A DNA stretch of 64,000 bases from an uncultured Alphaproteobacteria bacterium (GTDB lineage: Bacteria; Pseudomonadota; Alphaproteobacteria; Methylaequorales; Methylaequoraceae). The DNA is taken from positions 84,089 to 148,088 of the forward strand of contig CACCYL010000002.1 in the NCBI GenBank assembly GCA_902550225.1, read 5' to 3'. Made by a program: the position numbers and the translations under genes. The first letter of the stretch is position 1. Each line of letters opens with the position of its first letter. This document shows, piece by piece, positions 12,062 to 29,484 of this stretch. The notes under the pieces were generated by a model. That model was not told the DNA's origin, searched no databases, and saw nothing but the letters and a program-made list of their open reading frames with translations.

Positions 12062-12063
12062 AT

Positions 12064-13005: not shown

Positions 13006-13018
13006 TTTTAAAAGTTAG

Positions 13019-14491
13019 GTGTTTTTGATATTATATACAAAACCTCCAATGTTAATAAGTCTAATAAAAAATAAAGTTTTCTGGTTTGTAATATTAACAA
13101 TTAAGTTTATTTTTTTATTTTTATTTGGTGTCCAGGAAATGCCTGATTCGAGTGCCTATATAGAACTTGCCGAAGAAATTGAAAATAATATAAACTCAAT
13201 TTTTGATTTTCAAAATAATTCAAGAATGATTGGATACTCATTCGTTATCTATATTATAAAATTAGTTTTTGATAAATACTGGATTGTTTCAATTGGTTTT
13301 TTTCAAATATTTTTTTCTTTTTTTACATTACTATTTATTTTTGAAACACTTAAAAAGCTAAAAATTTCGACTGTTTCGATTAAAGTACTGATTATTCTGT
13401 TTTCATTCTCAACGATTAACAAACTAGAGTTACTAATTCTAACAGATAGTATTTATGGAAACTTATTGGTTTTAATTTTTTGTAACTTTTTAAGAATTTA
13501 TGTAACAAATAATAATCTTCAAATCATAAAAAACTCTTTAATGATTAGTTTACTTCTTGTAATTTGTTTTTTGATTAAAGATACTACTCTTGTTTTCCTC
13601 CCTTTGTTATTAGTATTCTTTACAATAATAATTGTAAAACTTTTTTTAAAAGAGATTACTTTTAAAAACTTTGTAATTAACTTTATGATTATTTTTCTTC
13701 CTATTTTAAGTATCTCAGAGACTATAAAATTTCAAAATTTAAAAAAAGAAAATTACAGATATATAACATTAGGTGGATCTACAATTTATCTGTACGCTAC
13801 AGTTAAACCATTTCTTGATAGGAATTTAAAAAACTTTAATAACAATAATGAAATTGACATTACTTATAAAAAATTTGTAACAAATAATGAGTTTTCAAAT
13901 ATATATAACATGATTTCAGAGCTTAAAAGTAAAGGTTTTTCAGATGTTGAAATATTAAAATATTCAAAAGAAAAATATTTTGAAATTATTCAGAATCCAA
14001 AAAATCTGATGACTATTATTATTGGAAATTTAAAACCAACTTTTGTTTGGGGAGTGTTTCAACCATTTTTAAGTTTAAGTCAACTATATTCAATAAAGAT
14101 AAGTGATAATTCATATTGGAGAACAAGACTAATTTTAAAAAAAATTTTGAGCGAAAAAACTCTTAACTTTGATCTAATTCTGTTTGTTTTATGCTTGTTT
14201 GAAATTTTAGTTGCTTCTTCAATGTTTATTTTATTTTTATTTACCGGTATGACGAATTTAAGAAAAATATTATCAATCAAAAAGAAAAAAAAGCAGAATT
14301 TCTCTTTTATAATTTTAATATCAATAATTTTCTATTTGTTGTTTTGTTTCCTTCATTTAATTGTTCATATTGAGCCAAGATATTTGGTAGGTACCAATTT
14401 TTTGTTTATTCTATCAATAATTTTAAATTTTGAAAAAGACATATCAGTATTTTATGATAAAATTAACAATTTTACAAAAAAAGTTCTATGA
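13019..14491 (+). CDS. polytopic membrane protein of the glycan locus (possible GT-C-type glycosyltransferase or polymerase)
   Basis: About 12 predicted TM helices and no soluble motifs. It overlaps the downstream methyltransferase gene by 4 nt. Confidence 0.5.
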   Translation: MFLILYTKPPMLISLIKNKVFWFVILTIKFIFLFLFGVQEMPDSSAYIELAEEIENNINSIFDFQNNSRMIGYSFVIYIIKLVFDKYWIVSIGFFQIFFSFFTLLFIFETLKKLKISTVSIKVLIILFSFSTINKLELLILTDSIYGNLLVLIFCNFLRIYVTNNNLQIIKNSLMISLLLVICFLIKDTTLVFLPLLLVFFTIIIVKLFLKEITFKNFVINFMIIFLPILSISETIKFQNLKKENYRYITLGGSTIYLYATVKPFLDRNLKNFNNNNEIDITYKKFVTNNEFSNIYNMISELKSKGFSDVEILKYSKEKYFEIIQNPKNLMTIIIGNLKPTFVWGVFQPFLSLSQLYSIKISDNSYWRTRLILKKILSEKTLNFDLILFVLCLFEILVASSMFILFLFTGMTNLRKILSIKKKKKQNFSFIILISIIFYLLFCFLHLIVHIEPRYLVGTNFLFILSIILNFEKDISVFYDKINNFTKKVL

Positions 14492-15213
14492 AAAAATCTC
14501 ATTTTTATTATGAATCAAGTATAGAAAAATACTTTTGGTGGTTTACAGTAAGAAGATTTTTCTTCTCAAGGGAAATAATAAAATTAATTGACAAAAAAAA
14601 AAGAATTTTAGACATTGGAAGTAGTAGTGGAACTAATCTTAGAATGTTAGAAGAAATTGGTTATCACAATTATACTGGTTTAGATCCAAATGATGTAGCA
14701 ATAAACCAATGCAAAAAAAAAGGTTTTACTAAGATTATTAAAGGCAATGCCTGCAACTTACCATTTAAAAGTAATAGTATTGATCTAGTAATTGCATCAG
14801 ATGTCTTAGAGCATATTGAAAATGATAAACTTGCATTATCTGAAATTTATAGAGTTATGAAAAAAAATTCTTATGCTATTATTACTGTTCCAGCCTTTAA
14901 TTTTCTATGGAGTTTACACGACGAAAATTCAATGCATAAAAGAAGATATATAAAAAAATCATTAAAAAATTTAATAAACCATAAAAGTTTTGTAATAAAA
15001 AAAATTTATTATTTTAATTTTTTGTTATTTATACCGATTTATTTTGCCAGAATTATATTTAAACTTTTAAAACTTAATATTAAAAATGAAAATAAGGTAA
15101 ATAGTAAATACTTAAATGTTTTATTAAAAATTATTTTTAAATTTGATGTTCTAATAGCTGAAAAAATAAATCCACCTTTTGGAGTCTCGATTTTCGCTTT
15201 GATTAAAAAATAA
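14488..15213 (+). CDS. class I SAM-dependent methyltransferase
   Basis: Motif I LDIGSSSGTN and the post-I acidic residue, with a C-terminal hydrophobic tail. Confidence 0.75.
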   Translation: MKKSHFYYESSIEKYFWWFTVRRFFFSREIIKLIDKKKRILDIGSSSGTNLRMLEEIGYHNYTGLDPNDVAINQCKKKGFTKIIKGNACNLPFKSNSIDLVIASDVLEHIENDKLALSEIYRVMKKNSYAIITVPAFNFLWSLHDENSMHKRRYIKKSLKNLINHKSFVIKKIYYFNFLLFIPIYFARIIFKLLKLNIKNENKVNSKYLNVLLKIIFKFDVLIAEKINPPFGVSIFALIKK

Positions 15214-15345
15214 AAAGTATCTTATTAAAATTAAATTTTTCAAGAAATAAACAACTAAATTTCAATATAATAAAAAGATAAACATAATGTTCATATTTGC
15301 GTAAAAGAAATAAAAAAGTTTACATTATGAAAGAAGTTAATCCTT

Positions 15346-16185
15346 TTATTGTCTATTGTAAAATAAACTTATTGCATGTTCTTTTATTAAATCTAAATCA
15401 ACAGCTGAACTACTAGCAATAAAGGCTCCATTCTTAAAATTTTTTTTCCCATATAAAAATTCACATATATCGTTATTTTCAAAACCTATAAGGTTAGCAT
15501 TAGCAGTTTGAAGTATTGAATGTCCTGCTGCAATATCCCATTCCATTGTTTTGCCAAACCTAATATATAGATTAGCTTTTGAATCAGCTATCATACAAAA
15601 TTTTAAAGAAGAACCTTTTTTAATTAAATCATTCTCGTAATTAATTTTAGATAAAAAATCCTCTGTCTTTTTATCTAAATGTGATCTGCTGCAAACAATT
15701 GATAATTCAGGTGATTTCGATGAATTAATTATTTGAATCTCATTTTTGATTGATCTGAATGAATTATATCCATTTGAATAATATTGTGTTTGTAGAACAG
15801 GTATATCAATAACGCCGATTTGTGGACGGTTTTGTTGAATAAGTGCAATATTTACTGTAAATTCGCCGTTCTTATTTAAAAACTCTTTGGTACCATCTAA
15901 AGGGTCGATTAATATAAATTCATCAAAATCTGCACCATCAGGAATTTGAGACTCTTCAGAAACCCTCGTGATTGATCTTAATTCTTTTTGAAGTATTTCA
16001 ATTATTATTCTATTGGACTCAATATCCGCTTTTGTTAAAGGTGTGTTGTCCTTTTTAATTTTCTTAGATAATTCATCGCATTCATATATTTCTAAAATTT
16101 TAGTAGCAGCTTTGCTAGAGGCAAATCTAAATATTTCTGTTATTTCTGCAAAGTTATGTTTCTTTATTTTATTTTTTTTTGACAT
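15346..16185 (-). CDS. cysQ: 3'(2'),5'-bisphosphate nucleotidase / inositol monophosphatase family
   Basis: IMPase motifs (IDPLDGTKEF, WDIAAG). Confidence 0.8.
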   Translation of the reverse strand: MSKKNKIKKHNFAEITEIFRFASSKAATKILEIYECDELSKKIKKDNTPLTKADIESNRIIIEILQKELRSITRVSEESQIPDGADFDEFILIDPLDGTKEFLNKNGEFTVNIALIQQNRPQIGVIDIPVLQTQYYSNGYNSFRSIKNEIQIINSSKSPELSIVCSRSHLDKKTEDFLSKINYENDLIKKGSSLKFCMIADSKANLYIRFGKTMEWDIAAGHSILQTANANLIGFENNDICEFLYGKKNFKNGAFIASSSAVDLDLIKEHAISLFYNRQ

Positions 16186-17159
16186 TATATAACTTTTATT
16201 AAAGTCCTACCTCTTATTTGCCCCTTTAATATTTGATTAGATATGTCATGTAAATCATTAAAACTCTTACTAACTTTAATTTCTTTTAAAATTCTTTTGT
16301 CCAAGTATTTTTCTAAAAATTTCCACGCATTTACTCTTTTTGTGTAACTAGCATAAACACAATCAATTCCAGATAAAGTTATATTTCTTAATATAAAGGG
16401 ATAAACAGTCGTATTTAATGTTGCACTCTTCGCTAAACCTGTACTAACAACAATTCCATCATACATTGTTTCAGCTAGTATAGTAGATAGGATTTCTCCA
16501 CCAACAGTATCTATAGCCCCTTGCCACTTTTGTTTTGATAAAGGATTTTTTGAATAATTAAAACTATCTCTTTTAATGATACTTGTAGCACCCAATTTCG
16601 TTAAGAATTTTTCATCTTTATTTGTTAAAGCAACAACTTTATAATTTAAATTAGACAATAAATTTACTGCAATACAACCAACACCTCCTGATGCACCCGT
16701 TACTAAAATATTATTAGTTGAAGGTTTTTTTATTTTTTTTATTAATTCTTGAACGCACAATGCAGCGGTGTACCCTGCTGCGCCAATAATCATAGCTTCT
16801 TGAAGCGAAAAATTATTTGGTAAATGAATTAACCAATCACTTTTGACTTGTGCATATTCTGAGAACCCGCCAAAATGTTTTTCTCCAATACCCCATCCAT
16901 TACATAAAACTTTATCTCCCTTTTTGAATTTTTTTGAGCTTGATTTCACAACTACACCTGAGAAATCTGCTCCTGGTATCATCGGAAATCGTTTAACGAT
17001 TGGAGCTTTATTAAGAATTGCCAAACCATCTTTATAATTAAAACTTGTGTAATGAATTTTAATTAATACGTTTCCTTCCATTAATTCAGAAAAGTTCATA
17101 TTTGTTATTTTACAAGTTTTATCTTCATAAATTACAAATGCTTTAAATGTATTTTTCAT
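16185..17159 (-). CDS. MDR-family NADPH:quinone / acryloyl-CoA reductase (YhdH/AcuI-like)
   Basis: Medium-chain dehydrogenase/reductase fold with a GASGGVG nucleotide motif and a YhdH-like N-terminus. It is adjacent to cysQ with no gap. Confidence 0.75.
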   Translation of the reverse strand: MKNTFKAFVIYEDKTCKITNMNFSELMEGNVLIKIHYTSFNYKDGLAILNKAPIVKRFPMIPGADFSGVVVKSSSKKFKKGDKVLCNGWGIGEKHFGGFSEYAQVKSDWLIHLPNNFSLQEAMIIGAAGYTAALCVQELIKKIKKPSTNNILVTGASGGVGCIAVNLLSNLNYKVVALTNKDEKFLTKLGATSIIKRDSFNYSKNPLSKQKWQGAIDTVGGEILSTILAETMYDGIVVSTGLAKSATLNTTVYPFILRNITLSGIDCVYASYTKRVNAWKFLEKYLDKRILKEIKVSKSFNDLHDISNQILKGQIRGRTLIKVI

Positions 17160-17242
17160 GTTATAAATATTGATTTTTAATGAGATTTAATTATTTTTGA
17201 AATTAGATTAACAAATATTTTAAAAAACACCATTTATAATGT

Positions 17243-17416
17243 ATGTCAAGACGAACATATGAAAAAGATGCAGATTTTGTTGAAGTTGCAGACGATTTAG
17301 AAAATTTAGTTGCTGACAAAAGAATAAGTTGGAGAGCATCAGCAACGAAAGCAAGAAGAAGACAAAGAAGGTATAAAAATAGACTTACTTATGAAATCTT
17401 AAAAATATCTAGGTAA
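17243..17416 (+). CDS. small basic protein (57 aa), unknown function
   Basis: I translated this by hand from an intergenic gap: MSRRTYEKDADFVEVADDLENLVADKRISWRASATKARRRQRRYKNRLTYEILKISR. It falls below the ORF-track size threshold. Confidence 0.35.
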   Translation: MSRRTYEKDADFVEVADDLENLVADKRISWRASATKARRRQRRYKNRLTYEILKISR

Positions 17417-17432
17417 GATTCTTGTCGTTAAG

Positions 17433-18008
17433 TTAAACTGGTAAACCCTTGTAACACTGACCTTCGAAATGGAATGTTTCCTTTGGTTTTAAAGAAAATG
17501 ATTCAAGAGTCTTCAAGGATAGCCTCCCTTTTTTGTTATATAACGGAACATTTTTTGTATTGGCTTCAAGTTTACTTATAGCATTAAAAAATTTCGGATC
17601 ATTAAAACTGTAAAATGATCTTTTTGTTTCACCTGTAATTTTGTTGATTCTATATGATTCTAAATAATAAGCTTGAGAGACAAATGTATTAATAGTTATT
17701 GTATCTTTAACTGTTTTATATTCATCTAGCAGTATTCCTTGATGATTGAACCAGGAATTTCTTAACCTATATTCATTTTCACTATTAGATAAGCTGTATT
17801 GATTTACTTCAATAAAATCTTTACAACCAAGGTTTTTACAAATTTGCTGATTGTCAATCTTATCATTTTCAACAAATCCAATTTCATTTATCTCTTTTTT
17901 GATAAGGCTAGGATCAAATTCACATGTAAGTTTTAAAACGTTCTTAGGATTTGTGTATGCATTGCTTGATGCGAACAAACAGTATAAAAGGATGAGAAGC
18001 TTTTTCAT
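17433..18008 (-). CDS. secreted hypothetical protein
   Basis: Signal peptide MKKLLILLYCLFASSNA. Confidence 0.5.
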   Translation of the reverse strand: MKKLLILLYCLFASSNAYTNPKNVLKLTCEFDPSLIKKEINEIGFVENDKIDNQQICKNLGCKDFIEVNQYSLSNSENEYRLRNSWFNHQGILLDEYKTVKDTITINTFVSQAYYLESYRINKITGETKRSFYSFNDPKFFNAISKLEANTKNVPLYNKKGRLSLKTLESFSLKPKETFHFEGQCYKGLPV

Positions 18009-18456
18009 ACAATTTGTAAAATAGGCGTATAAAGGTTGTTTACATTATCTGCAATTAGCAAAAGTTGTGAGCTATAATCAGCTGTAAACTTTTCTTTTAT
18101 TTCAGGAAATTTTTTTAAAAAGAACCATAAGGTAAAAAAACATGACCAAAATATAATTAAAAATCGTCTGACAATTTTTGGTTTAACTTCAATTTTCATG
18201 GGACTTAATTACTCAGTTAGATGTTATATACATTATTTATGACTGATTATAAATAATTCAATAATTTCTTATGAGTTTTATTAAATTACTCTGTTTGAAA
18301 TAGAAACATAGTTGAAATCTTCTAAGTTTTGTAATATTTTTTGTTTAAAAATGAGTTATATTTTTATATCTGTTTTGATTTAAAAAATATAAGGTTTTAG
18401 AGTTTAGTAGTGAACATTAATTGAAAGCGCTATTATCTAAATCAAACTCGGATGAA

Positions 18457-18495
18457 GGAGAGATGGCAGAGTGGTCGAATGCACCGGTCTTGAAA
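18457..18495 (+). pseudogene. tRNA-Ser 5' half-copy (acceptor and D arm through the anticodon loop), remnant of the original target gene
   Basis: 37 of 39 positions are identical to the 5' half of the intact tRNA-Ser at 20751, and identity stops exactly at the anticodon loop. About 150 bp of upstream flank is also homologous. Confidence 0.75.
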
Positions 18496-18627
18496 GACAA
18501 CAGAGTCACTCCGAACACCCTTATTTGCTTGAGTTTTAAATAAAAATATAGTCGACAACATAGTCGACAACATATATTATCAAATATTCTGTACTAACCT
18601 TACACAGATTATTTAACTAATAGTATT

Positions 18628-19188
18628 TTGACTCGAACTTACATGGAAAACTCGCTCAAAAACATTATTAGAAACTATCAAAATTCTTTTAAAAGGAAAG
18701 TCTACACAAATGAAAATAACGATGTCGACTTATTAATGAACGTTTTTGGTATAACTCCCGATTTAAAGCGAGAAAATCGACAATATTGGGGACGAGAACT
18801 GGGAATGTGCTGGCAACTTTTAGTCATAGAATTATTCAGGAACACAAGAGATGATTTTGGTGCTGCCATAAAAATCGGTTCAGACGAACCCTGTGACCTA
18901 ACTGCCGGAACCTATGCGATTGACACAAAATATAGAATAGGGTCAGGAGACTCTGGTACGTTGAAAAAATTTAAATCTTACGGTCCTAAATTAAAAGAAA
19001 TGGGTTACTCACCAATATTTTTAATAGTTAGAGAAGATAACTTACCTGCGGCGATTACTGCTTGTCGAGTTGGTGGTTGGAGGGTATTAACCGGGAAAGA
19101 TACTTTTAAATTTATCAGAGAATTTACCAATTTTGATCTGGAGCAGTTTCTGCTCGACAATCGTGAAAATTTCAACGTTGAACGTTAA
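18628..19188 (+). CDS. type II restriction endonuclease candidate (PD-(D/E)xK fold)
   Basis: PCD-x9-DTK motif. The gene is convergent with the methyltransferase and overlaps it by 4 nt tail to tail. GC content is elevated. Confidence 0.55.
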   Translation: MTRTYMENSLKNIIRNYQNSFKRKVYTNENNDVDLLMNVFGITPDLKRENRQYWGRELGMCWQLLVIELFRNTRDDFGAAIKIGSDEPCDLTAGTYAIDTKYRIGSGDSGTLKKFKSYGPKLKEMGYSPIFLIVREDNLPAAITACRVGGWRVLTGKDTFKFIREFTNFDLEQFLLDNRENFNVER

Positions 19189-20078
19189 AAAAGAGAATAA
19201 TTGAGTCTTTCCCTGATTATCTCTACATACTTCTTTTCAATCTCAATTCCAAGATATCCTCTACCTAAATGTTTCGCAGCGAGCAGAGTTGTTCCAGAAC
19301 CAGCAAAAGGATCTATTACCACATTTTGAGTTCCTTCTGGAACAAGTATGCTTACTAATTTTTCCATTAATGATAGAGGTTTTACAGTACAATGCACATT
19401 GAACTCTTCCTTTTTGTCTCTTTGAATATTCTCTAAAATATTTGACTGAAATCCTCCATTCTTTAAAGTTGTATTGAAAACTCCAACTCCGTACTTCATT
19501 AATGTTTGTGAATAATTTTGTTCTAAAGGTTTTTGAACCAAGACAATGCCCTCCCATTCATTCCGAAAACAACTATGCCAACCCTGCCACCGATAATGTT
19601 CCTGGTAACCTTTACGTTTTAACTGAGATGCAGCGTTGTAACCCTTTGGGATGCCACTCGAACGTCGATACACAAGTATATCGCGAGCATAAAAACCTGC
19701 CTTTTCGAGGGCAACTTGGACATGCGCCAGTGTCCGGGTACTGTTAAATACAGCAACGGGACTTCCCGGTTTCAAGATTCTATAAAGTTCTTCTGACCAT
19801 TTCAGACACCACTCCTCATAATCAAGTATGTTTGACCGATTTTTATCATACCATCGCTTATTCCTTACCCCACCAGCAAGACCACTTCCGTAAGGTATGT
19901 TTTTCACTAATGTGTTACTTTTTTTGGACCTACTAATCCTTCGTTCAACTTCCTCAGTATCCCAATTTTTTCCGATAAATTCATAGTTATATGGAGGATC
20001 AGTGATACAAGCAGACACCGTATCAGGTTCAAATTGCTTCATGATCTTGATGCAATCTCCATTAAATATCTTATCCAA
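19185..20078 (-). CDS. DNA methyltransferase, beta-class N6A/N4C (DPPY ... FAGSGTT)
   Basis: Motif IV DPPY is N-terminal and motif I DPFAGSGTT is C-terminal. This is the ParB-less beta-class arrangement, as in M.RsrI and M.PvuII. GC content is markedly higher than in the surroundings. Confidence 0.85.
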   Translation of the reverse strand: MDKIFNGDCIKIMKQFEPDTVSACITDPPYNYEFIGKNWDTEEVERRISRSKKSNTLVKNIPYGSGLAGGVRNKRWYDKNRSNILDYEEWCLKWSEELYRILKPGSPVAVFNSTRTLAHVQVALEKAGFYARDILVYRRSSGIPKGYNAASQLKRKGYQEHYRWQGWHSCFRNEWEGIVLVQKPLEQNYSQTLMKYGVGVFNTTLKNGGFQSNILENIQRDKKEEFNVHCTVKPLSLMEKLVSILVPEGTQNVVIDPFAGSGTTLLAAKHLGRGYLGIEIEKKYVEIIRERLNYSLF

Positions 20079-20283
20079 ACCTAATCCTATGTATTTTTAA
20101 ATTAATTTGCTTGAACATATTTTTTCCTTCAACAGAATTGTAAACCCAATTTTAAACCAGATCTCTAAAATACAATTACCAAAATTTTATGAAAAAGTAT
20201 CCTACTTTCCATTTTTTAAAAATTGTAATCTCAAATAATCAAACTCACCATTTTTTTTTCTAAAACTTTTTAGAATTAACTTT

Positions 20284-20640
20284 TCAGTTCATTGAAGTCT
20301 TCAATTTTTTTGAAATTACACATAACCCCTTTGACTTATGAATAATTTTATAACTATCAAATCTTTTTAAACTCTTCTTGTATTTGTCTAATGTCATCCA
20401 GACCAATTTTGGAGTATACTGATTACCTGTAGGAGATTTTAAATTGGAACTATTAAGATAATCACTGATCTCAACTGATGACTTTCCCTCATCACTTAGG
20501 TACTTTATAAGTTTCAATCTATTTTCCCTTTTTGAATTTAAATTAAATATAGATAATTTTTGGGTTTCGATAACAACTCTGAATTTAATGAAAAGGGTGT
20601 TTAAACGCACCCTACCCCCCTTTTTCCTAATCACATTCAA
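20284..20640 (-). pseudogene. remnant of a large serine recombinase (recombinase domain only)
   Basis: YLSDEGKSSVEISDYLN...KSPTGNQYTPKLVWMTLDKYKK matches the HTH/recombinase-domain signature (G.S...IA..LN..G..TP.G..W....V..IL.N..Y). The N-terminal catalytic resolvase domain is missing and a G6 tract lies at the 5' end. Confidence 0.5.
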
Positions 20641-20750
20641 AATAGAATCATAGGTTGAAATCTAGGAAGATTTGTAATAGTTTCTTGATTTAAAATCTGT
20701 GATATTTTATGTCTTTTTTTTGATGTAAAATATGTGATTTTAGGGTCAAC

Positions 20751-20840
20751 GGAGAGTTGGCAGAGTGGTCGAATGCATCGGTCTTGAAAACCGACAAGGA
20801 TGCAAGTCCTTCTAGGGTTCGAATCCCTAACTCTCCGCCA
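20751..20840 (+). tRNA. tRNA-Ser (anticodon UGA)
   Basis: Cloverleaf folded by hand: acceptor GGAGAGT/ACTCTCC, anticodon stem TCGGT/ACCGA with loop CTTGAAA, a long variable arm, T arm TAGGG-TTCGAAT-CCCTA, discriminator G and an encoded CCA. Confidence 0.9.
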
Positions 20841-21172
20841 TTTTAGAGGTCATTAGTCGACAATATAGTCGACAACATTAAAAACCCTGTCCTCTGTAAC
20901 GCAGACTCACATTGACTTATAGAAGTTTTATTAGTTGAATAAACTAGTCTTGAAAACCGGCAAAGATGCAAGTCTTTCCAGGGTTCGAATCCCTGACTCT
21001 CCGCCACTTTTGGGGTCATTAGTCGACAACATAGTCGACAACACTAAAAACTCTATCCTCTGAAAGACAGACTCACATTGATTTGTAGAAAATATATTAG
21101 TTGAATAATCTGGTCTTGAAAACCGGCAAGGATGCAAGTCCTTCCAGGGTTCGAATCCCTGTCTCTCCGCCA
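20781..21172 (+). repeat. 166-bp tandem repeat (about 2.4 units). Each unit begins at the tRNA-Ser anticodon loop and contains the tRNA 3' half plus a GTCATTAGTCGACAAYATAGTCGACAACA spacer
   Basis: The period is exactly 166 bp (20781, 20947, 21113). The tRNA 3' halves recur at 20947-21006 and 21113-21172. Confidence 0.85.
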
Positions 21173-21343
21173 CTAACTCTAACCCTATTATTTCTGTGCT
21201 TCTACGGGCTTTAAATTGGCTTTTATACCTAATCATTATACCAAAACTAGATACCCCACCCCCATATATTTTTACCCGGGGGAGGAAAAATACCCCGGCT
21301 TGTTTTGATTGTTATAGTGTCTTAATAATTTTAAATTCAATAT

Positions 21344-21736
21344 TCATATTTTAAACAGTAAATCCCAACCAGTAATAAGCACCATTAAGTTTAAAAATGC
21401 TATTATAGCGGGGGCGATGTAGCCCTCAGCAGATGTCTTTACACCGTCAACAGTACCCCAATAACTATTTATAGTTTGAAAGCAAACAACTGCCCCGATA
21501 CATGCTTGCACAAAACCATAGACAAACAGTAACCAAGCGCCTTCGATAGAAGTTAGTAAAGCAATAGACAAGGTGACTGCAAAGCCGGCAGCAAAAGTGC
21601 CAACAAGTCTTGTCATAATTGCGCTACCTTCACCAAAGCCATATTTCTCAATGTACTTGCGTGTTTGGAAAATACATTGATAAGCATAAATCAAATTTCC
21701 AAATATTATTAATGCTATGAGTACAAAAATTAGCAT
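21344..21736 (-). CDS. small integral membrane protein, unknown function
   Basis: Four predicted TM segments and no recognisable motifs. Confidence 0.5.
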   Translation of the reverse strand: MLIFVLIALIIFGNLIYAYQCIFQTRKYIEKYGFGEGSAIMTRLVGTFAAGFAVTLSIALLTSIEGAWLLFVYGFVQACIGAVVCFQTINSYWGTVDGVKTSAEGYIAPAIIAFLNLMVLITGWDLLFKI

Positions 21737-22098
21737 TTCAGTAAACCTCTATAATCCTCTCAAACGGGAAACAAATTATCAATCATTTACGTATACTATT
21801 CAAAATGTAATTGAAAAAGTGTTATTTTAATAAATAATCTAACAAATTATTTTCCCAATAGAATCACTACTCTCTGGAACCTTAATTTAGAAACTTTTCC
21901 CCTAAAAAGTATGGCCTGATGGGTTAGGAAAAATATGCTAGTTTTAAATTATAAAATATTATTTGAATTTGAAACTATCATATTTTTTCACTAGTCTGAT
22001 TAACATAGAAAAAGAAAAGTTTGAATTTATAAAGTAAGAATTACTAGATAAAATTAATAATTTTTCAAAATAATCAGATTTGACCTCTGGAAGATTAT

Positions 22099-23703
22099 AT
22101 GAATTTAGAAAATCTAGACTGGTATATTATATTTGGATACTTAGTTTGTTTAATTCTTTTATCTGTTTATTTATCAAAAGATCAAAAAAACTTGAAAGAT
22201 TATTTTGTTGCATCAAGAAAACAAAAATCAAAAAAATTGGCTATTTCTATTCTAGCTACTCAATGTTCAACAAATAGTATCCTAGGTGCTCCTGCTTTTG
22301 TTGCTTTTTCTGTTGGTGGTGGCTTGGGTTGGTTGAAGTATGAATTGGCAGTGCCATTATCAATGATTGCAATCATGATTTTTATTTATCCAATTTTCTA
22401 TAAATTAAAGATAATTTCAATATACGAGTACCTTGAAAAAAGGTTTGATCTCAAAACGAGATTATTAATGAGTTCATTATTTCTTTTTGTAAGAGTTTTT
22501 GCAACTGGAGTAATTGTTTACAGTGTATCAATAGTTATTGAATTAATAACAGGTTTAAGTTTTGTATATTCCGTTCTCATACTTGGTCTTATAACAATCG
22601 TCTATGATGTTTTAGGAGGGATAAAAGCAATTATTTACAGCGATATTATTCAAATGATAATTTTGACTGTTGTACTAATCTTTATTCTTTTTTATTTAAC
22701 AAGTATTTTTGGTGGTTTTAGATCAATGTTTAATTATTTCCCAGATCAAAGAAATGTAAATTTAAATTTCTTTGAGCATGGACTTGGTGATGGAAAAGAA
22801 TTTGCTTTTTGGCCAATGTTAATTGGAGGTTTTTTTTTGTATATGTCTTATTATGGTTGTGATCAAAGTCAAATGCAAAAAGCACTATGTGCTAAAAATC
22901 AAAATGAGGGACAAAAAGTATTTTTTTTAAATGGTATTTTCAGATTTCCTCTTGTATTGCTGTACTGTTTAATTGGTGTAGGAATAGGTTCTTATTCCCA
23001 AATTAATGCTGATTTTATCTCAAGTCTTCCAAAACAAGATGGGATACCTAACTTTAATTTGGCTGTCCCTATTTTTCTAATAAATAATTTACCAATCGGA
23101 ATTGTGGGACTGACGCTAGTAGCTTTGTTTTCTGCTGCTATGTCATCGCTAGATTCAGTGTTAAATAGCTTGTCTGCAGTAACAATGGAAGATTTTGTTC
23201 AAAGAATTAAAACTTTTAGATATCTTTCAGAAAAAAATAACCTTTTCATATCAAGAGTAATAACCTTATTTTGGGGTTCATTAGCAATTATTTTGGCTTT
23301 TTATGTTGAAGACATTTCTAGCAATGTTCTTATTGCAATCAATAAAATAGGTTCTTTGATTAATGGACCAATTATTGGTGTATTTACATTAGGTATTTTA
23401 ACAAAAAAAATTAATGGTAATAGTGCTTGTATAGGAATAATTTGTGGATTTTTATTTAACCTATACTGTTGGGTTTATTTAGTTAACGTATCTTGGCTTT
23501 GGTGGAATGCAATTGGTTTTGTTGTTACTTTAAAAATTGCAATAGTGCACGACTTTTTTTTCTCCAACTTTCAAGCAAATGAAACTTTTGTTTGGTCATT
23601 AAAATCCTTCAAAAAATTGTACTTTAATAACACATGGAAAACTCGATATATTATTTTGTTTATTTGGTTTATTTTAATATTCTTTTTAATTTATTTCTTC
23701 TAG
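22099..23703 (+). CDS. sodium:solute symporter (SSS family)
   Basis: 13-TM architecture and SSS signature regions (AAMSSLDS, GPIIG). Confidence 0.8.
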   Translation: MNLENLDWYIIFGYLVCLILLSVYLSKDQKNLKDYFVASRKQKSKKLAISILATQCSTNSILGAPAFVAFSVGGGLGWLKYELAVPLSMIAIMIFIYPIFYKLKIISIYEYLEKRFDLKTRLLMSSLFLFVRVFATGVIVYSVSIVIELITGLSFVYSVLILGLITIVYDVLGGIKAIIYSDIIQMIILTVVLIFILFYLTSIFGGFRSMFNYFPDQRNVNLNFFEHGLGDGKEFAFWPMLIGGFFLYMSYYGCDQSQMQKALCAKNQNEGQKVFFLNGIFRFPLVLLYCLIGVGIGSYSQINADFISSLPKQDGIPNFNLAVPIFLINNLPIGIVGLTLVALFSAAMSSLDSVLNSLSAVTMEDFVQRIKTFRYLSEKNNLFISRVITLFWGSLAIILAFYVEDISSNVLIAINKIGSLINGPIIGVFTLGILTKKINGNSACIGIICGFLFNLYCWVYLVNVSWLWWNAIGFVVTLKIAIVHDFFFSNFQANETFVWSLKSFKKLYFNNTWKTRYIILFIWFILIFFLIYFF

Positions 23704-23951
23704 TGGTTTTTAACGGATTTATATAACATTTGGGTTAAAGATATTTCTTATCTCTTTCTCTCCTTCTCTATCTGAAATCCCTGAATTCTCATATCTTGAG
23801 CTTCTTTATTTAATAATTTTCCCTCCGAGATTACTCCCCTTAATTTTCAACTAAAAGATTAACCAAATGTGAATAACACCCTCAGAGTTGATTAAGAAAA
23901 AAATAATAATAAGGGTATAATTTTATTAACTTTTTATTTAAGGAGTAAACA

Positions 23952-24029
23952 ATGGCTTGGACAAAACCAATGATTTCTGAAATCTCTGTTGGTCTTGAAA
24001 TCAATTCTTACGCTTGCGCTGAGAAGTAA
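23952..24029 (+). CDS. PqqA-like 25-aa peptide (MAWTKPMISEISVGLEINSYACAEK), copy 1
   Basis: AAGGAG RBS 6 nt upstream. The peptide aligns to alphaproteobacterial PqqA (W..P.[IV]SEI.VG[ML]E[VI].SY..AE), including the E-x3-Y crosslink pair. It is followed by an intrinsic terminator. Confidence 0.6.
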   Translation: MAWTKPMISEISVGLEINSYACAEK

Positions 24030-24058
24030 TTTCGATCTATAAAGATGAAATTTTAAAA

Positions 24059-24087
24059 GCCTGGCTAAGAAGTCAGGTTTTTTTTTT
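24059..24087 (+). terminator. rho-independent terminator after PqqA-like copy 1
   Basis: Stem CCTGGCT/AGTCAGG (7 bp with one G-U wobble), loop AAGA, then T9. Confidence 0.75.
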
Positions 24088-24290
24088 CTTAAATTAAACC
24101 TTTCCTTACCCTTTTATCTTTAAGCCTTGTCTTTTTGCCCTCTAGAGCTGATTTCATATCTACGTATGCCCTATAATAACTATTTATTGTTATCTTTATG
24201 ATTTCTATATATACCTAAAATGATAAATAGTTTTTTATAATAAATTTCTTATTTAATTTACTCTTATTTTTGCAAATCAAACACTAAATT

Positions 24291-26102
24291 ATGTCAAAAA
24301 ATATTAGGAATGTAGCTATTATTGCTCATGTAGACCACGGCAAAACCACATTAATTGATTCAATACTTAAGCAAATTGGAATGTTTAGATCCAATGAAGA
24401 GATTGGGGAAAGAATAATGGATAGTGGCGATTTAGAAAAAGAACGTGGTATTACGATTTTGGCAAAGCCTACATCAATTAAGTGGAATGGAGTAAAAATA
24501 AATATAATAGATACACCAGGACATGCAGATTTTGGTGGAGAGGTTGAAAGGATTTTATGTATGGCTGATGGAGTAATTTTATTAACAGATGCCTCAGAAG
24601 GACCAATGCCTCAAACAAAGTTTGTTTTAGGTAAAGCATTATCGCAGGGTTTAAAGCCAATTGTAATCATTAATAAAGTTGATAAAAAAGATAGTCGTGC
24701 AGATGTCGTTTTAGACGAAGTGTTTGATCTTTTTGTTACTCTAAATGCAAATGAGGATCAGCTTGATTTTCCAATACTATACGCCTCTGGAAAAAATGGT
24801 TGGTGTGTGAATGATCTCAAAGATAAAAAAGAAAATTTGCACCCTCTTCTCAATTTAATAATAGAGCATGTGCCTCCTCCAAAAATTAATTCAGAAACAT
24901 CTTTTTCATTTCTAGCAACCCTTCTCTCTTACGATACTTATGTTGGTAGATGTTTAATAGGAAAAGTTGAAAGTGGGAATGCCGAAGTTAATAAAATTGT
25001 TAAGGCAATAAATCTAAATCAAAAACTTGTAGAAAAAGGCAAATTAACAAAATTATTTTCTTTTGAGGGAAATAAAAGAATTCCTGTTAATGAAATTGTT
25101 GCAGGTGATATAGCTTGTATTGCTGGTTTAACTAATGCTTCAGTTTCAGATACAATTTGTGATAATTTAGTCTCTAAACCCATAAAATCGTCTCCGATAG
25201 ATCCCCCAACTATGTCAATAACCATTACTGTTAATAACTCACCTTTTGCTGGGCAGGAGGGCAAAAAAGTGACTTCTAATAATATTAGAGAAAGGCTTTT
25301 GGCAGAAGCTGAAACAAATGTGGCAATTACTTTTAGTGAAAATGAAAATAAAGATGCTTTTGAAATTGGCGGTAGAGGCGAACTACAATTGGGAGTTTTG
25401 ATCGAAACTATGCGAAGAGAAGGTTTTGAATTATCAGTTTCTAGACCAAAAGTATTATTTAAAACAGAAAAAAATATCAAATTAGAACCAGTTGAAGAGG
25501 TTGTAATTGATGTTGATGAAAGTTTTTCAAGCACAGTGATTAGCTCAATGAATAATAGAAAATCAGAAATGATCGATATGAAAACTTCCTCAGCAAAGAC
25601 TCGTATTATCTTTAAGTCACCTTCAAGGGGACTAATAGGTTATCAAAGTCAATTCTTAACAGAAACAAAAGGAACAGGTATTCTGAATAGAATATTTCAT
25701 GCTTATGAACCATTTAAAGGAGAGTTTAAAGAAAAAAGAAATGGTTCCTTAATATCAACTGAGACAGGTCAAGCAGTTGCATATGCAATCTTTAATCTGC
25801 AAGATAGAGGAGTAATGTACATCAAACCGCAAACCAAAGTATACACTGGAATGGTAGTTGGTGAGCATAATAAAGAAAATGATCTTGAAATTAATGTTTT
25901 AAAAGGAAAACAACTTACTAATGTTAGAGCATCAGGTTCAGATAAAGCTGTTACTTTGGTACCACCAGTTAAGATGACATTAGAGCAGATGATTTCTTTT
26001 ATAAGAGATGATGAATTACTTGAGGTAACACCTATGAACCTAAGACTTAGAAAAAAATATCTTGATTCCAATGAAAGAAAGCGTGAAAAAAAATTAAATT
26101 AA
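24291..26102 (+). CDS. typA: translational GTPase TypA/BipA
   Basis: AHVDHGKTT G1 motif, DTPGH G3 motif and NKVD G4 motif, with EF-G-like domain organisation. Confidence 0.92.
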   Translation: MSKNIRNVAIIAHVDHGKTTLIDSILKQIGMFRSNEEIGERIMDSGDLEKERGITILAKPTSIKWNGVKINIIDTPGHADFGGEVERILCMADGVILLTDASEGPMPQTKFVLGKALSQGLKPIVIINKVDKKDSRADVVLDEVFDLFVTLNANEDQLDFPILYASGKNGWCVNDLKDKKENLHPLLNLIIEHVPPPKINSETSFSFLATLLSYDTYVGRCLIGKVESGNAEVNKIVKAINLNQKLVEKGKLTKLFSFEGNKRIPVNEIVAGDIACIAGLTNASVSDTICDNLVSKPIKSSPIDPPTMSITITVNNSPFAGQEGKKVTSNNIRERLLAEAETNVAITFSENENKDAFEIGGRGELQLGVLIETMRREGFELSVSRPKVLFKTEKNIKLEPVEEVVIDVDESFSSTVISSMNNRKSEMIDMKTSSAKTRIIFKSPSRGLIGYQSQFLTETKGTGILNRIFHAYEPFKGEFKEKRNGSLISTETGQAVAYAIFNLQDRGVMYIKPQTKVYTGMVVGEHNKENDLEINVLKGKQLTNVRASGSDKAVTLVPPVKMTLEQMISFIRDDELLEVTPMNLRLRKKYLDSNERKREKKLN

Positions 26103-26322
26103 TAAATATTTTACCAAAATAGCATAACCATCTCTATGTCATAAATAATAAAACTAAGTGGTTGTTCAGTAAAACCTATACTTTTTCCTATTACTCTGCC
26201 TGTATAAGAAAGCTTCGGATTCTTGGCTCCTTTGGATCAAAATTTGGTAGTCTTTACTTCTAATTTTATCCAAAAAAAATATCGACTTAGTATAGTTTAA
26301 TGCATCGATTTGCTCTGATTTT

Positions 26323-27357
26323 TTACACACGCCAAACTGTAACACCACCTTGTCTATCCAATCCAGCAAGTGCTTTATCATCTTGACGCCAATATAATTT
26401 TGAAACAGAATCACTTACACTAGTTTCACTTAATCCACTTTCTTCATTTTCAGATTTTAAGTCCCAAAGTACTACAACACCATCCCTTGATCCTGAAGCT
26501 AAATTCATACCACGATTTGAAAAAGCTAGTGATGTAATTGGTTTAGTGTGAAGTTTTAACGATAAAGGAGATGTACCCTCAGGCCCATTGCCTTTGAAAC
26601 TCCAAACTGTTACCTCTTCACTTCCCCCTGTGGCCAAGTAGCTTCCAGTTTCGTCAAAAGACAAAGCTGAGGGTTTTAGTGGATATCCAGACATCATTGA
26701 ATCTTGCTCTGTTGATCTGCGCCAAAAATGAATTGTATTATCTTGGCTTCCACATACGACTATGTCGCTGTTTGGGCTTAATACCATTGAAACTAAAGAC
26801 CCTTTCCATTCTAATTTCTGCTTTATTTTTCCTGAAATACCATCAAAAAAGGAAACACGCCCATAGCATGTTGTAGCTAGTTCTTTTTCGATGGACCAAG
26901 CTAAATTACTTACAGTACTATTATGACTGTCAGATTGCCACATTTCATTACCCTCTTTGGTGTATACATAAATGGTTCGAGAGCAAGAAAACGCCAGCAT
27001 TTCTCCATCTTGTGACCACGATAAATTTTCTATCCAACCATCACCCAAATCAATGACTTTTTCCTTTTTTTTTTGTTGAGCATTCCAAATAATAACCTTT
27101 CCATCCTGACCTCCTGTTGCGAACCTATCAATTAATGGATGGATTGCTGTTGAAAGAATACCACCTTCATGAACTTGTCCTTGAGACCATTTCATTTTAC
27201 CAGATGTACCATCAAAGACATATATCCCTCCAGCAGCATCACAAATTATGAGAGCCTCACCATTAAAGTTCCAACCCCCAGAAATAGCGTAATCATTTAC
27301 ATAGGCTTTCCAACCACTTCTGAGAATCTTTTGGGGTTGTGTTTCCATTATACTCAT
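26323..27357 (-). CDS. WD40-repeat beta-propeller protein
   Basis: Seven WD-like blades ending in W/D dipeptides (WNAQ, WRRS, WDLK, WRV). There is a 4-nt ATGA overlap with the upstream COG0523 gene. Confidence 0.75.
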   Translation of the reverse strand: MSIMETQPQKILRSGWKAYVNDYAISGGWNFNGEALIICDAAGGIYVFDGTSGKMKWSQGQVHEGGILSTAIHPLIDRFATGGQDGKVIIWNAQQKKKEKVIDLGDGWIENLSWSQDGEMLAFSCSRTIYVYTKEGNEMWQSDSHNSTVSNLAWSIEKELATTCYGRVSFFDGISGKIKQKLEWKGSLVSMVLSPNSDIVVCGSQDNTIHFWRRSTEQDSMMSGYPLKPSALSFDETGSYLATGGSEEVTVWSFKGNGPEGTSPLSLKLHTKPITSLAFSNRGMNLASGSRDGVVVLWDLKSENEESGLSETSVSDSVSKLYWRQDDKALAGLDRQGGVTVWRV

Positions 27358-28706
27358 ACAAGACAGTCCTCAAAATCCCTTCGCATTTCCTTTTCATCAA
27401 GGTTGCGTCCAATAAATACAAGCTGATTTCGTCGAGGTAAACTTCCCCAAGGGCGATCAGGTTTTCCACTAAAAATCATATGAACACCTTGAAAAACGAA
27501 TCTATTTGACTCTCCAGCAATACTTAGAAAACCTTTCATACGAAAAATATCTACTCCTTTGTCTCTAAGAAGTTTAGAAATCCAAGCTTGTAGTTTTTGT
27601 TCATCCAAATCACCGTCTTTTTCAATTGAAAAAGAACCAACTTCGTCATCATGTTCATGTTGTGCTACCCATGTTCTTTCTACTTCGACTGCAACTTCAT
27701 CGTTATTATTTACTTCAATTAACTTCATATTGAATTCTTCTGCTGTATGTTGAGCAAAAAGACCTAATTTTGTATCTTTCTCAATTTCAATATAAAATTC
27801 TTTTGGACCAGACGACTCAAGGTTTAAGTTGACATGTTTTCCTTTAGGAATTATTTCTTCTGGTTTGATTGATTTGGCGTCTTCAGCGTAAAGGCGAACG
27901 CAGCGCTCAGCAGAATTTCTCAAACTTACATCATCTGCATTCTGATCAGGCACAACAACAAGAGACATAGAAGGGTCAGGACCCTCAGACATAATGATTT
28001 TATATTTACCACATTTAGTTGGATAAATTCCCGTCCATTCAAATGGATATTCTGGTTCTAGAAAAGTAGGACGGCGTGTAAGAGCCTGGTCTAAATTAAA
28101 GGCACTTTTATCAAGGACAGAGTTAATTGGAACATTGGCCATTTCACTCCTAATGAATTTTGCCATTTTATTCATTTCCCGAAGACGGGCTTCTAAATTA
28201 TCAAGTTCTGAGTCTTTGACAAGATCTGTTTTGTTAAGAACAATAACGTCTGCAAATGCAATTTGTTCCGTACTTTCGTTACTTCTTCCAAGTTGTTGAT
28301 TTATATGAAATGTATCAACAAGAGTTATAATTCCATCAAGAGAAAACTCTGAACTTATCTCATCATCCATAAAAAAAGTTTGAGCCACTGGACCTGGATC
28401 TGCAAGACCAGTAGTCTCTACAACAACGTAATCAAATTTATCACGCCTTTTCATGAGGTTCCCAAGTACTCTAATTAAATCACCACGAACTGTACAACAA
28501 ATACAACCATTGGCCATCTCAAAGATTTCTTCCTCTGCATTTATTACAAGAGCTTGGTCAATACCAACCTCTCCAAATTCATTTTCAATCACAGCTATTC
28601 GTTTTCCGTGTTGCTCGCTTAAGATACGATTTAGTAAAGTGGTTTTACCTGAACCAAGAAAGCCAGTTAGAATGGTTACAGGAACCTTTTTAGATGAACT
28701 ATCCAT
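27354..28706 (-). CDS. COG0523 (CobW/ZigA/YjiA) metallochaperone GTPase, long form with an extended linker
   Basis: P-loop GFLGSGKTT, the family-defining metal-binding CxCC (GCICCT), and a CobW_C-like C-terminus. There is a Zur box upstream of the operon. Confidence 0.85.
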   Translation of the reverse strand: MDSSSKKVPVTILTGFLGSGKTTLLNRILSEQHGKRIAVIENEFGEVGIDQALVINAEEEIFEMANGCICCTVRGDLIRVLGNLMKRRDKFDYVVVETTGLADPGPVAQTFFMDDEISSEFSLDGIITLVDTFHINQQLGRSNESTEQIAFADVIVLNKTDLVKDSELDNLEARLREMNKMAKFIRSEMANVPINSVLDKSAFNLDQALTRRPTFLEPEYPFEWTGIYPTKCGKYKIIMSEGPDPSMSLVVVPDQNADDVSLRNSAERCVRLYAEDAKSIKPEEIIPKGKHVNLNLESSGPKEFYIEIEKDTKLGLFAQHTAEEFNMKLIEVNNNDEVAVEVERTWVAQHEHDDEVGSFSIEKDGDLDEQKLQAWISKLLRDKGVDIFRMKGFLSIAGESNRFVFQGVHMIFSGKPDRPWGSLPRRNQLVFIGRNLDEKEMRRDFEDCLV

Positions 28707-28887
28707 TTTCTTCTCCATTTAAAATTGTCATTCTTTTTCCTAGATCTCTGCGAAGTTTTGTAATTGCATATGGTTTCATATTTTTCCACTTTTTGCATTC
28801 CTCACGTGTTCTGCCACAACCAATACACCATGAATTTTTCCCTATAAATTTGCATATGTCAATACATGGACTTTTATTACGTTTCAT
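28699..28887 (-). CDS. DUF1289-family small Cys-rich protein (YdhL-like)
   Basis: SPCIDIC-x7-CIGCGRT-x-EE-x2-W matches the DUF1289 pattern. It is the first gene of the Zur-box operon. Confidence 0.65.
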   Translation of the reverse strand: MKRNKSPCIDICKFIGKNSWCIGCGRTREECKKWKNMKPYAITKLRRDLGKRMTILNGEENG

Positions 28888-28918
28888 ATGTAAAGTTCTA
28901 AATTTTATTTTTTATTAT

Positions 28919-28939
28919 TGTAATGTTATAACATAACAC
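28919..28939. promoter_or_regulatory. candidate Zur box (TGTAATGTTATAACATAACAC) in the divergent intergenic region
   Basis: Perfect palindrome TGTTATAACA within GTAATGTTATAACATAAC. Compare the proteobacterial Zur consensus GAAATGTTATAWTATAACATTTC. Confidence 0.55.
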
Positions 28940-28998
28940 TTTATAGTATAGTTTTATTAAATAAAAAAACATTATGTATTCAAAAACTTTATGTAAAC

Positions 28999-29355: not shown

Positions 29356-29484
29356 CTAAAGATCTATTATTAAAAAATTTTTTGTTGTTCTTTTCCTTGT
29401 CATTCCTCCAATATTTAGAAGCCACTGACTCTGACTATTTTGAGGCTTGATTTGATAATTTTTTACCAAAATAAATTTATTATT

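Follow-up and report, generated by a model that had tools for sequence, protein, structure and literature searches.

The 64-kb window (the whole stretch of DNA analyzed) contains a tRNA-Ser gene followed by further copies of its own 3' portion at a constant spacing of 166 bp, which raises the question of how an array of tRNA halves could come to be phased so precisely. Tandem Repeats Finder, run as a check of the 166-bp-period tandem array reported in a preliminary description of this DNA, placed it at 20781-21174 with a period of 166, 2.4 copies, 89% matches, 0% indels and a score of 627. A repeat search recovered three in-register 61-nt copies (20780, 20946 and 21112; spacing 166/166), a T-arm/acceptor 25-mer occurred three times against no occurrence in 100 shuffles, and the TAGTCGACAAC motif formed adjacent pairs at 20854/20866 and 21020/21032, with 7 matches in total against 0.47 expected. 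The period is exact, as had been stated, but the units themselves are not, units 1 and 2 being identical at only 144/166 positions; the 22 differences between units also argue, in line with the earlier description, against assembler duplication. Each unit had been described as a tRNA 3' portion plus a spacer of about 100 bp, which is correct for units 1 and 2, whereas the third is the 60-nt tRNA portion alone: it has neither a spacer nor GTCGACAAC repeats, and runs directly into native downstream DNA. A further GTCGACAAC pair (18549/18561) and a tRNA 5' portion (18457-18495), located 2.3 kb upstream, had been overlooked and are parts of one structure with the array. The array is the right edge of this larger structure (Table 1): a by-product, consisting of a stack of attR scars, and no functional unit.

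Table 1. Features of the split tRNA-Ser locus, from left to right (positions in the window).
Feature	Position	Strand	Support or remark
Native upstream DNA (promoter/leader) of the host tRNA-Ser(UGA)	18280-18456	+	89-94% vs. DNA upstream of intact tRNA-Ser in L002/L004/L032
Displaced native tRNA-Ser 5' portion (positions 1-39), host side of attL	18457-18495	+	30/30 and core identical to 8 relatives
Core GTCTTGAAA in the displaced native 5' portion	18487-18495
Element P' arm	18496-18588	+	Nearly identical to the DNA from attP core to integrase ATG in L051, L048 and L050
Degenerate tRNA-3'-half-like stretch, in the P' arm	18496-18548
TAGTCGACAAC pair of the P' arm (putative arm-type integrase sites)	18549-18571
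Type II restriction-modification cassette, in place of the element body	18589-20587		~2.0 kb
ApaLI-family-like REase	18643-19188	+	Homologues named restriction endonuclease, some with PF09499; weak PADLOC REase_II
N6/N4 DNA methyltransferase	19185-20078	-	PF01555, 2.9e-35; PADLOC MTase_II, 1e-49
Recombinase-HTH-like ORF, 118 aa	20284-20640	-	No convincing family; PF07508, E = 0.009, below cutoff
Element DNA: terminator hairpin (20594-20613), then upstream/promoter region of the element tRNA	20588-20750	+	151/154 vs. L051
Complete element-borne tRNA-Ser(TGA); its 3' 60 nt are unit 1	20751-20840	+	ARAGORN; Rfam RF00005, 60 bits
Spacer S1, P arm of L051-type attP; TAGTCGACAAT/C pair at 20854-20876	20841-20946	+	98/106 vs. 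L051
Unit 2: displaced 3' portion (31-90) of the tRNA-Ser of an earlier L050-type element	20947-21006	+	60/60 vs. L050 tRNA
Spacer S2, P arm of L050-type attP; TAGTCGACAAC pair at 21020-21042	21007-21112	+	97/106 vs. L050
Unit 3: displaced native tRNA-Ser 3' portion (positions 31-90), host side of attR	21113-21172	+	60/60 vs. relatives
Native DNA downstream of tRNA-Ser	21173-21343	+	84-92% vs. the same region in L032, L022, L031 and L002

Using a neighboring 130-aa gene as bait, we recovered 42 related loci from marine SAGs and MAGs labeled SAR116 cluster or Alphaproteobacteria. One identical tRNA-Ser(TGA) sequence is common to 8 of them, and positions 1-39 and 31-90 of this native gene, both 100% identical to the relatives, lie at the two ends of the structure in the window. 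A locus with the corresponding empty site (L002) was found among the relatives: 15377-18495 of the window aligns to 13707-10586 of L002, and 21032-26174 to 10675-5571, with collinearity ending exactly at 18495. The split native halves and this collinearity therefore indicate that 2617 bp (18496-21112) were inserted into the native tRNA-Ser(UGA) at its anticodon loop, with GTCTTGAAA duplicated at each junction. With the junction point marked by a slash, a full-length integrated element would be flanked by GGAGAGATGG...GTCTTGAAA/GACAACAG on the left and by ...AATAA[AT]CT[AG]/GTCTTGAAAACCGG on the right. In L069, a Tara contig of independent origin, the attL junction is matched at 100%; the right-hand array was not seen in an independent assembly. 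Unit 3 continues without a break into native downstream DNA, for which alignments were obtained with L002, L032, L031 and L022. Reading this downstream DNA by eye, we also observed a GC hairpin with a T-run (~21276-21306), shared with the convergent 130-aa gene, which our scan left unflagged because of its 11-nt loop.

The element-borne gene at 20751-20840 is the only intact tRNA-Ser in the locus, and ARAGORN identified no other intact one in the 64-kb window. It is identical to the tRNA of free elements found in metagenomes (L048, L051, L053, L056-58 and L061). In Rfam searches a tRNA was scored only at 20751-20837 and the attL and attR chimeras were not scored as tRNA; a second ARAGORN call (21085-21172) had no tRNA-family match in Rfam, only a sub-threshold match to tRNA-Sec (27 bits vs. 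a gathering threshold of 47). The element tRNA, with U7, U28, A44, U63, A79 and A80, differs from the native one at 6 positions, which form three compensated pairs (7/80, 28/44 and 63/79), and the variant carried by another free element (L050) differs from the native one at 7/80 and 48/59; since the differences among the tRNA variants are all compensatory pairs, each variant must have evolved as a working tRNA. Out of 30 pairs of the native fold, 17 are broken in the attL chimera, composed of the native 5' portion and the degenerate 3' stretch, and 9 and 7 are broken in the two attR chimeras. No functional tRNA is predicted to be rebuilt at either attL or attR, and the element tRNA would take over decoding, as suggested by its being the only intact tRNA-Ser in the window and by the published precedent of tRNA-dependent lysogeny. 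The array had been thought to regenerate the 3' half of the host tRNA; what we found instead are elements that break the host gene in the anticodon loop and bring a whole replacement gene. The element DNA preceding this gene (20588-20750) is partly homologous to native tRNA upstream DNA, and its hairpin stands after the SprT-like gene in free elements; a simple promoter scan revealed no clear promoter for the element tRNA.

The free form of the element was found by scanning metagenome contigs with the pattern tRNA 3' end, 10-16 nt, TAGTCGACAA, which gave six matches, three of them relevant (L048, L050 and L051); the other three (L046, L047 and L049) were rejected as chance matches in GC-rich DNA. 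The relevant contigs carry, in this order, a resolvase, a small ORF, the SprT-like gene, the terminator hairpin, the upstream region and a complete tRNA-Ser(TGA), followed by a 106-bp spacer with a TAGTCGACAAC pair, GTCTTGAAA, a degenerate 3'-half-like stretch, a second TAGTCGACAAC pair and the integrase ATG. The gene order of the ~11-kb element is integrase, small ORFs, DUF5906 protein, resolvase, SprT-like gene, tRNA-Ser and attP. The 12 contigs covering both tRNA and attP (L048, L050-L058 and L061), derived from separate metagenomes, show this free attP with the integrase directly past the TAGTCGACAAC pair, and every free-element contig that reaches the tRNA region, the same set, carries the complete tRNA-Ser(TGA); two others (L059 and L060) begin inside the spacer, so that the attP-integrase part alone is visible. 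The exact integrase is present on at least 47 contigs, the ten longest places all have the same attP-integrase arrangement, and the 8 of these ten that also reach the tRNA all have the full layout. In one long-read contig the complete element recurs every 11,247 bp, which fits either an ~11-kb circle or a concatemer.

The 420-aa tyrosine-integrase-like protein encoded directly after attP matches PF13102 (29.3 bits, above cutoff) and the phrog_1 integrase family (3.5e-28), with a weak match to PF00589 (23.5 bits, below the cutoff of 27.1). A 581-aa protein of the element has a weak match to DUF5906 (27.2 bits vs. a cutoff of 27.6) and a match to phrog_28855, of unknown function, and one element ORF has a faint match to REP_ORF2-G2P. 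Ten proteins of L056 compared with PHROGs included no capsid, terminase or tail family, only integrase and unknown-function families; the integrase and the repeat motif were absent from IMG/VR viral contigs, and the TAGTCGACAAC pair had no matches in genome contigs or viral contigs. The carrier has no recognizable virion genes and is not recognizable as a temperate phage. The members of the integrase cluster come from metagenomes only, and the cluster is therefore without a host label.

Comparison of the empty site (L002), the occupied window and the free attP (L051/L050) defined the core shared by attP and the host gene as GTCTTGAAA (9 bp, L051-type) or GGTCTTGAAA (10 bp, L050-type), located in the anticodon loop; attP lies at about 2250-2460 of L051. 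The spacer before this core shows homology to the -10/leader region of native tRNA-Ser genes, most clearly in L003 and L023, and carries a 12-bp duplication, while tRNA positions 1-30 survive in decayed form (15/30 matches) as its final 30 nt. From these homologies it follows that attP originated as a second copy of the tRNA gene unit and has since decayed (76 + 90 = 166). The best sigma-70-like match in the region, TCGACA-17-TATTAT (10/12), overlaps the left TAGTCGACAAC pair, and in the free element it stands directly before the integrase gene.

The repeat pairs are located ~85 bp before and ~60 bp after the core, and three more distant integrases (38-43% identical) are accompanied by repeat pairs that occupy equivalent positions and differ in sequence. 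The first of these relatives (L062; integrase 42% identical; motif CCTACCAAC) is integrated in a 944-kb chromosomal contig and has the layout tRNA-Ser 5' portion, direct-repeat pair, int, ..., resolvase, direct-repeat pair and full tRNA-Ser; it supplies the 5' half and the promoter of a tRNA-Ser(CGA). The second (L063; motif TTACCAACA) is a short remnant on a MAG contig, with a degenerate 5' portion, int and then a full tRNA-Ser(TGA), and the third (L071; motif CCTACCTA) adjoins rplU/rpmA and has an intact tRNA-Ser(CGA) directly followed by repeats and int, where the contig ends. This variation of the repeat sequence with integrase lineage, at constant positions, supports a role in integrase binding, and the TAGTCGACAAC pairs are most likely arm-type sites.

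The period of the array is that of the free element, in which tRNA position 31 and the attP core are separated by exactly 166 bp in 10/10 short-read occurrences, and by 165-169 bp in four long-read (pilon) occurrences. Unit 1 matches the L051-type unit at 158/166 positions and unit 2 the L050-type unit at 157/166, each with 60/60 identity in the tRNA part. Eighteen positions discriminate between the two variants; unit 1 has the L051 state at 15 of them and unit 2 the L050 state at 14, and the spacer tails are shared in the same way (...AATAAACTA in S1 and L051; ...AATAATCTG in S2 and L050). Unit 2 includes the compensated variable-arm pair of L050, and S1 contains, besides its repeat pair, a leader-like stretch and the wrecked copy of tRNA positions 1-30. 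The chromosomal order is thus element tRNA, L051-type S1, 3' portion of an L050-type tRNA, L050-type S2 and native 3' portion. Because the nearest kin of the units are two different variants, we favor two serial disrupt-and-replace integrations over in-situ duplication or eroded small elements. The preliminary description, which had proposed serial integration at att sites, was right in spirit, but the remainder of its interpretation is not supported: the spacers, taken for deletion remnants of small elements, are each the intact 106-bp tRNA-to-attP-core interval of ~11-kb free elements, and unequal crossing-over is disfavored by units that are nearer to two different free-element variants than to each other. 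The P' arm at the left end is L051-type at 5/7 discriminating sites; as it is mainly of this type, either the first element and the 5' portion of its tRNA were removed, or a composite was formed before arrival.

Between the P' arm and the terminator hairpin, the body of the element is replaced by the restriction-modification (R-M) cassette. The 118-aa ORF at its right end is probably truncated, since its N-terminus is read across the element terminator hairpin. A 96% identical copy of the 2-kb cassette is also found among unrelated genes (L065-L068). In the window the cassette junctions lie at the microhomologies ATATT and ATGAAAAGG, and another three runs (L043-L045) contain the cassette at 99.8-100% identity; all contigs with the exact methyltransferase and REase are short and end at the repeats. 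Searches with tblastn recovered none of the integrase, resolvase, SprT-like, DUF5906 and ORF264 proteins in the window or in the 42 related loci. The insert is therefore integrase-less, and the cell is probably unable to lose it, given that no intact tRNA-Ser(UGA) was found outside it in the 64-kb window.

We consider it likely that the array consists of stacked attR junctions from two related elements, which inserted serially into the anticodon loop of tRNA-Ser and each brought a working copy. In this model, the attP of the ~11-kb family would be a wrecked tRNA-Ser pseudogene that keeps only the anticodon-loop core GTCTTGAAA, and the element would carry a whole tRNA-Ser(UGA) with its own upstream region, placing the tRNA core exactly 166 bp from the attP core. 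Upon integration into the host anticodon loop neither junction would rebuild a tRNA, leaving decoding to the element tRNA. An L050-type element would have entered the native gene, and an L051-type element would then have entered the tRNA of the first, by then the only intact target. Each integration would push the prior 3' portion 166 bp rightward, and the native 5' portion and its promoter would be left behind 2.3 kb to the left. The body of the first element and the integrase-to-SprT body of the second would have been lost later, the latter being swapped at short microhomologies for the type II R-M cassette. The functional steps, namely the specificity of the integrase, the arm-site role of the repeats and the dependence on the tRNA, are those that we infer from the sequences. 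A full-length copy of the L051/L050 family was not found between the native 5' and 3' portions, and the second attL predicted by two serial integrations (5' portion of the first element's tRNA plus P' arm) is absent, so that an extra deletion or a pre-formed composite must be assumed.

A pre-formed composite is central to the alternative that fares best, according to which a single event brought in a 2.6-kb insert, comprising the P' arm, R-M cassette, tRNA, S1, unit 2 and S2, that had been pre-assembled elsewhere as an integrase-less mini-element and was moved in by an integrase acting in trans, its two-variant array dating from an earlier host or an episome. A second attL then need not have been deleted afterwards, and the insert does keep a complete attL and attR, with a P' arm that is a near-intact L051-type arm and an attL-R-M junction that recurs in other samples (L043-45, L069). 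We nevertheless regard a single arrival as rather unlikely: no circular or attP-form contig joining S2 to a P' arm with the R-M cassette was found, and the presence of the cassette away from att sites (L065-68) is consistent with replacement in situ at microhomologies. The single-event account departs from serial integration solely in when and where the steps took place.

A perfectly phased, indel-free 166-bp array could also arise if one unit had been duplicated in tandem in situ, by unequal crossing-over or replication slippage, and the copies had then diverged, and direct repeats favor such events. Duplicated units should be each other's closest relatives, yet units 1 and 2 agree at 144/166 positions with one another and at 158/166 and 157/166 with the external L051 and L050 variants, respectively; among the differences of unit 2 is a compensated stem pair that is also present in the working tRNA of L050, and unit 3 is native, with its 5' portion 2.3 kb away, which makes this origin very improbable. 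An equally remote prospect is that elements bearing only the tRNA 3' half, as in classical islands of the tycheposon or Islander type, serially regenerated the host tRNA and were eroded to ~106-bp stubs, even though islands of other marine bacteria are known to be seeded at tRNA-Ser(UGA) (bioRxiv 10.1101/2020.12.28.424599) and the stretch that follows tRNA-Ser ranges from 0.1 to 8 kb in the relatives. Against this, the 5' half and promoter region of the functional tRNA are element-type (151/154 to L051) and not host-type, the host 5' portion is displaced and the native gene split, the spacers are an intact element interval and not independent deletion products, and attP and the host gene share 9-10 bp only; by the definition of a classical tDNA island used in Islander, moreover, the junctions are non-functional by Rfam, and the window has no integrase or resolvase homologue. 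Least probable of all is that the array is kept for functional RNAs (tRNA halves or the tRNA-derived small RNAs once suggested for it) or is an assembly artefact, for although the stretch from the element tRNA to the native terminator revealed no terminator-like site and read-through could include units 2 and 3, these lie below every Rfam threshold, with neither RNA-family support nor independent conservation beyond that explained by their origin, and an artefact is contradicted by the differences between units and by the independently confirmed left junction.

The closest known mechanism to serial disrupt-and-replace integration is the tRNA-dependent lysogeny described for mycobacteriophages in 2024. 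In these actinobacteriophages (Fionnbharth/K4, Cluster L), the core is ~10 bp, no tRNA is restored, the loss is complemented by a phage-encoded tRNA of the same isotype, and pairs of arm-type sites flank the core; the Lj965 prophage was suggested as a further case, and the authors describe the prevalence outside actinobacteriophages as unknown (Guerrero-Bustamante and Hatfull, 2024; PMC10865867). The locus described here is similar in having attB inside a tRNA gene, a short core (9-10 bp), no rebuilt tRNA and putative arm-site pairs. It differs in its carrier, an element of ~11 kb without recognizable virion genes, from marine SAR116-like Alphaproteobacteria; in a replacement tRNA that adjoins attP at a fixed 166 bp; in an attP that itself derives from the tRNA gene by decay; in a crossover in the anticodon loop, with the integrase adjoining the displaced 5' portion (5'-side polarity); and in a second element that targeted the tRNA of the first, producing a phased array.

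Tycheposons, which target Ser(tga) in Prochlorococcus and leave partial tRNAs with the host gene intact (Hackl et al., bioRxiv 10.1101/2020.12.28.424599), and other tRNA-seeded islands are likewise marine, integrase-bearing, possibly self-replicating and directed at specific tRNAs including Ser(tga); as in tycheposons, serial integrations leave partial tRNA copies, and cargo and defense genes accumulate beside the tRNA. Whereas tycheposons as described have partial tRNAs on both sides and an intact host tRNA, the L051/L050 family breaks the tRNA and supplies a whole gene: partial copies are present here, and the host gene is split and unregenerated. A Prochlorococcus or tycheposon island (30% GC, tRNA-Ser) was considered for this locus and rejected, the relatives of the neighboring genes being the SAGs and MAGs with SAR116 cluster or Alphaproteobacteria labels; an assignment to HIMB59/AEGEAN-169 was likewise discarded for want of support. 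Islands with a displaced 5' tDNA fragment make up 159/3919 in Islander (PMC4383910), and pTN3-like archaeal integrases provide further examples (PMC8371274). The element shares with them an integrase that adjoins the displaced 5' portion and the provision of the promoter-proximal part of the gene, and L062 has exactly this layout for tRNA-Ser(CGA). In those islands, however, the junction regenerates a working tRNA, whereas the 5' copy in the L051/L050 attP is wrecked (15/30) and a separate complete gene is carried.

With regard to the present state of the insert, two kinds of structure are familiar: integrase-less att-flanked remnants (CIMEs) and mobile R-M cassettes. Like a CIME, the insert keeps both att junctions and has no recombinase, and, as with mobile R-M cassettes, its R-M unit is found in at least two genomic contexts, joined at microhomologies. 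Unlike a CIME, the remnant also holds the only intact tRNA-Ser(UGA) found in the window.

Disrupt-and-replace integration has so far been described only for some actinobacterial phages, and the present locus is a new variant of it in a non-phage element. The strategy of disrupting a tRNA and bringing one's own is thereby extended to an ~11-kb element of abundant, genome-streamlined marine Alphaproteobacteria, and the window provides the first host link for an element family known only from metagenomes. It also offers a checkable account of phased arrays of tRNA halves, in which the period is the distance from the element tRNA to attP and the donor variant dates each unit. A route to irreversible integration is suggested as well: the integrase has been lost, an R-M cassette has been gained and the only intact tRNA-Ser(UGA) in the window is foreign, so that the cell probably depends on a stranded foreign tRNA gene. 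Such loci would be missed or misread by island-finding software designed around a regenerated tRNA, one displaced fragment and an internal integrase.

A broader reading, which we put forward tentatively, is that the element tRNA is an addiction device through which elements compete, that the arrays record take-overs, and that the integrase family switches among three layouts. If this were true, a newcomer would integrate into the tRNA of the resident element and so abolish the resident's grip on its host, the cell would come to depend on the newcomer, and the resident could decay. Depending on the part of the tRNA-derived attP that has decayed, members of the family would freely adopt a layout that supplies the 3' half (L071), the 5' half with the promoter (L062) or the whole gene (L051), and phased 166-bp arrays would represent a chronological record of take-overs in streamlined marine bacteria with a single tRNA-Ser(UGA).

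Among the 42 loci related to the window (L001-L042), the distance between tRNA-Ser(TGA) and the conserved gene for a 130-amino-acid protein varies from about 0.1 kb (in L002, an empty site, and in L025) to over 8 kb (in L019 and L031). The interval between the two is a variable island of the classic kind, on the downstream side of the tRNA. The window is empty at this position. L022 carries an island of a different kind at the same tRNA: two tRNA-Ser(TGA) copies separated by 6.2 kb, the downstream one damaged in its first 18 nt (5' end), with approximately 70 bp of sequence downstream of the tRNA likewise repeated.

Two further stretches of the window drew attention. Positions 10000-16000, with a GC content of 24-26% vs. 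about 31% elsewhere, may represent a separate variable region; the sole ORF of this stretch that was scanned (14488-15213) encodes a SAM-dependent methyltransferase. The second stretch (26121-29457) has the look of a metal-chaperone cassette that is mobile or variable: it includes a WD40-repeat ORF and a CobW-like GTPase gene, neither of which occurs at this position in L001, L002, and L032, the closest relatives. In L004, L008, L017, and L019, tRNA-Ser has a second CobW-like gene as its immediate neighbor.

Coordinates of tRNA copies, ORFs and att regions in the window and in related loci
Locus	Feature	Position	Remark
L022	tRNA-Ser(TGA), two copies	10606-10695 and 16872-16961	6.2 kb between copies
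Window	WD40-repeat ORF	26323-27357	
Window	CobW-like GTPase	27354-28718	
Window	Second CobW-like gene	29556-30770	
L071	attP layout	7323-7545	Intact tRNA, then directly repeats and integrase gene
L062	attP layout	9756-9870 and 19945-20114	Element provides tRNA 5' half and promoter
L063	att region	9850-10000 and 11980-12069	Integrase in the 38-43% identity set

Three attP layouts were found among the integrase of L051, a metagenomic contig with the free element, and its relatives at 38-43% identity. The L051 layout supplies neither tRNA half and carries a whole tRNA instead. The layout of L071, whose far end lies beyond the contig, looks like supply of the 3' half. An additional resolvase-to-leader block lies to the left of attL (the left junction) in L062, suggesting that this locus also holds tandem elements.

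The cassette comprising the restriction-modification genes and the recombinase fragment recurs in other marine contigs (L065-L068; e.g., L065 1521-3538), with 96% identity to window positions 18581-20596. Since it adjoins a ThiS-like gene there, the cassette itself shifts between contexts. In L053, another free-element contig, genes for a gamma-glutamyltranspeptidase and a metallo-beta-lactamase-fold protein occupy positions 10044-12500, where other copies of the free element have small ORFs; these extra genes could be cargo or reflect a chimeric assembly.

Finally, the top promoter-like match of the region, TCGACA-17-TATTAT (window 18552-18580; L051 2430-2460), is made up of the TAGTCGACAAC pair, direct repeats that are putative arm-type integrase sites. 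In the window this match now lies upstream of the restriction endonuclease gene. In the free element it stands immediately 5' of the integrase ATG, and integrase binding to these putative sites could therefore repress the integrase's own promoter.
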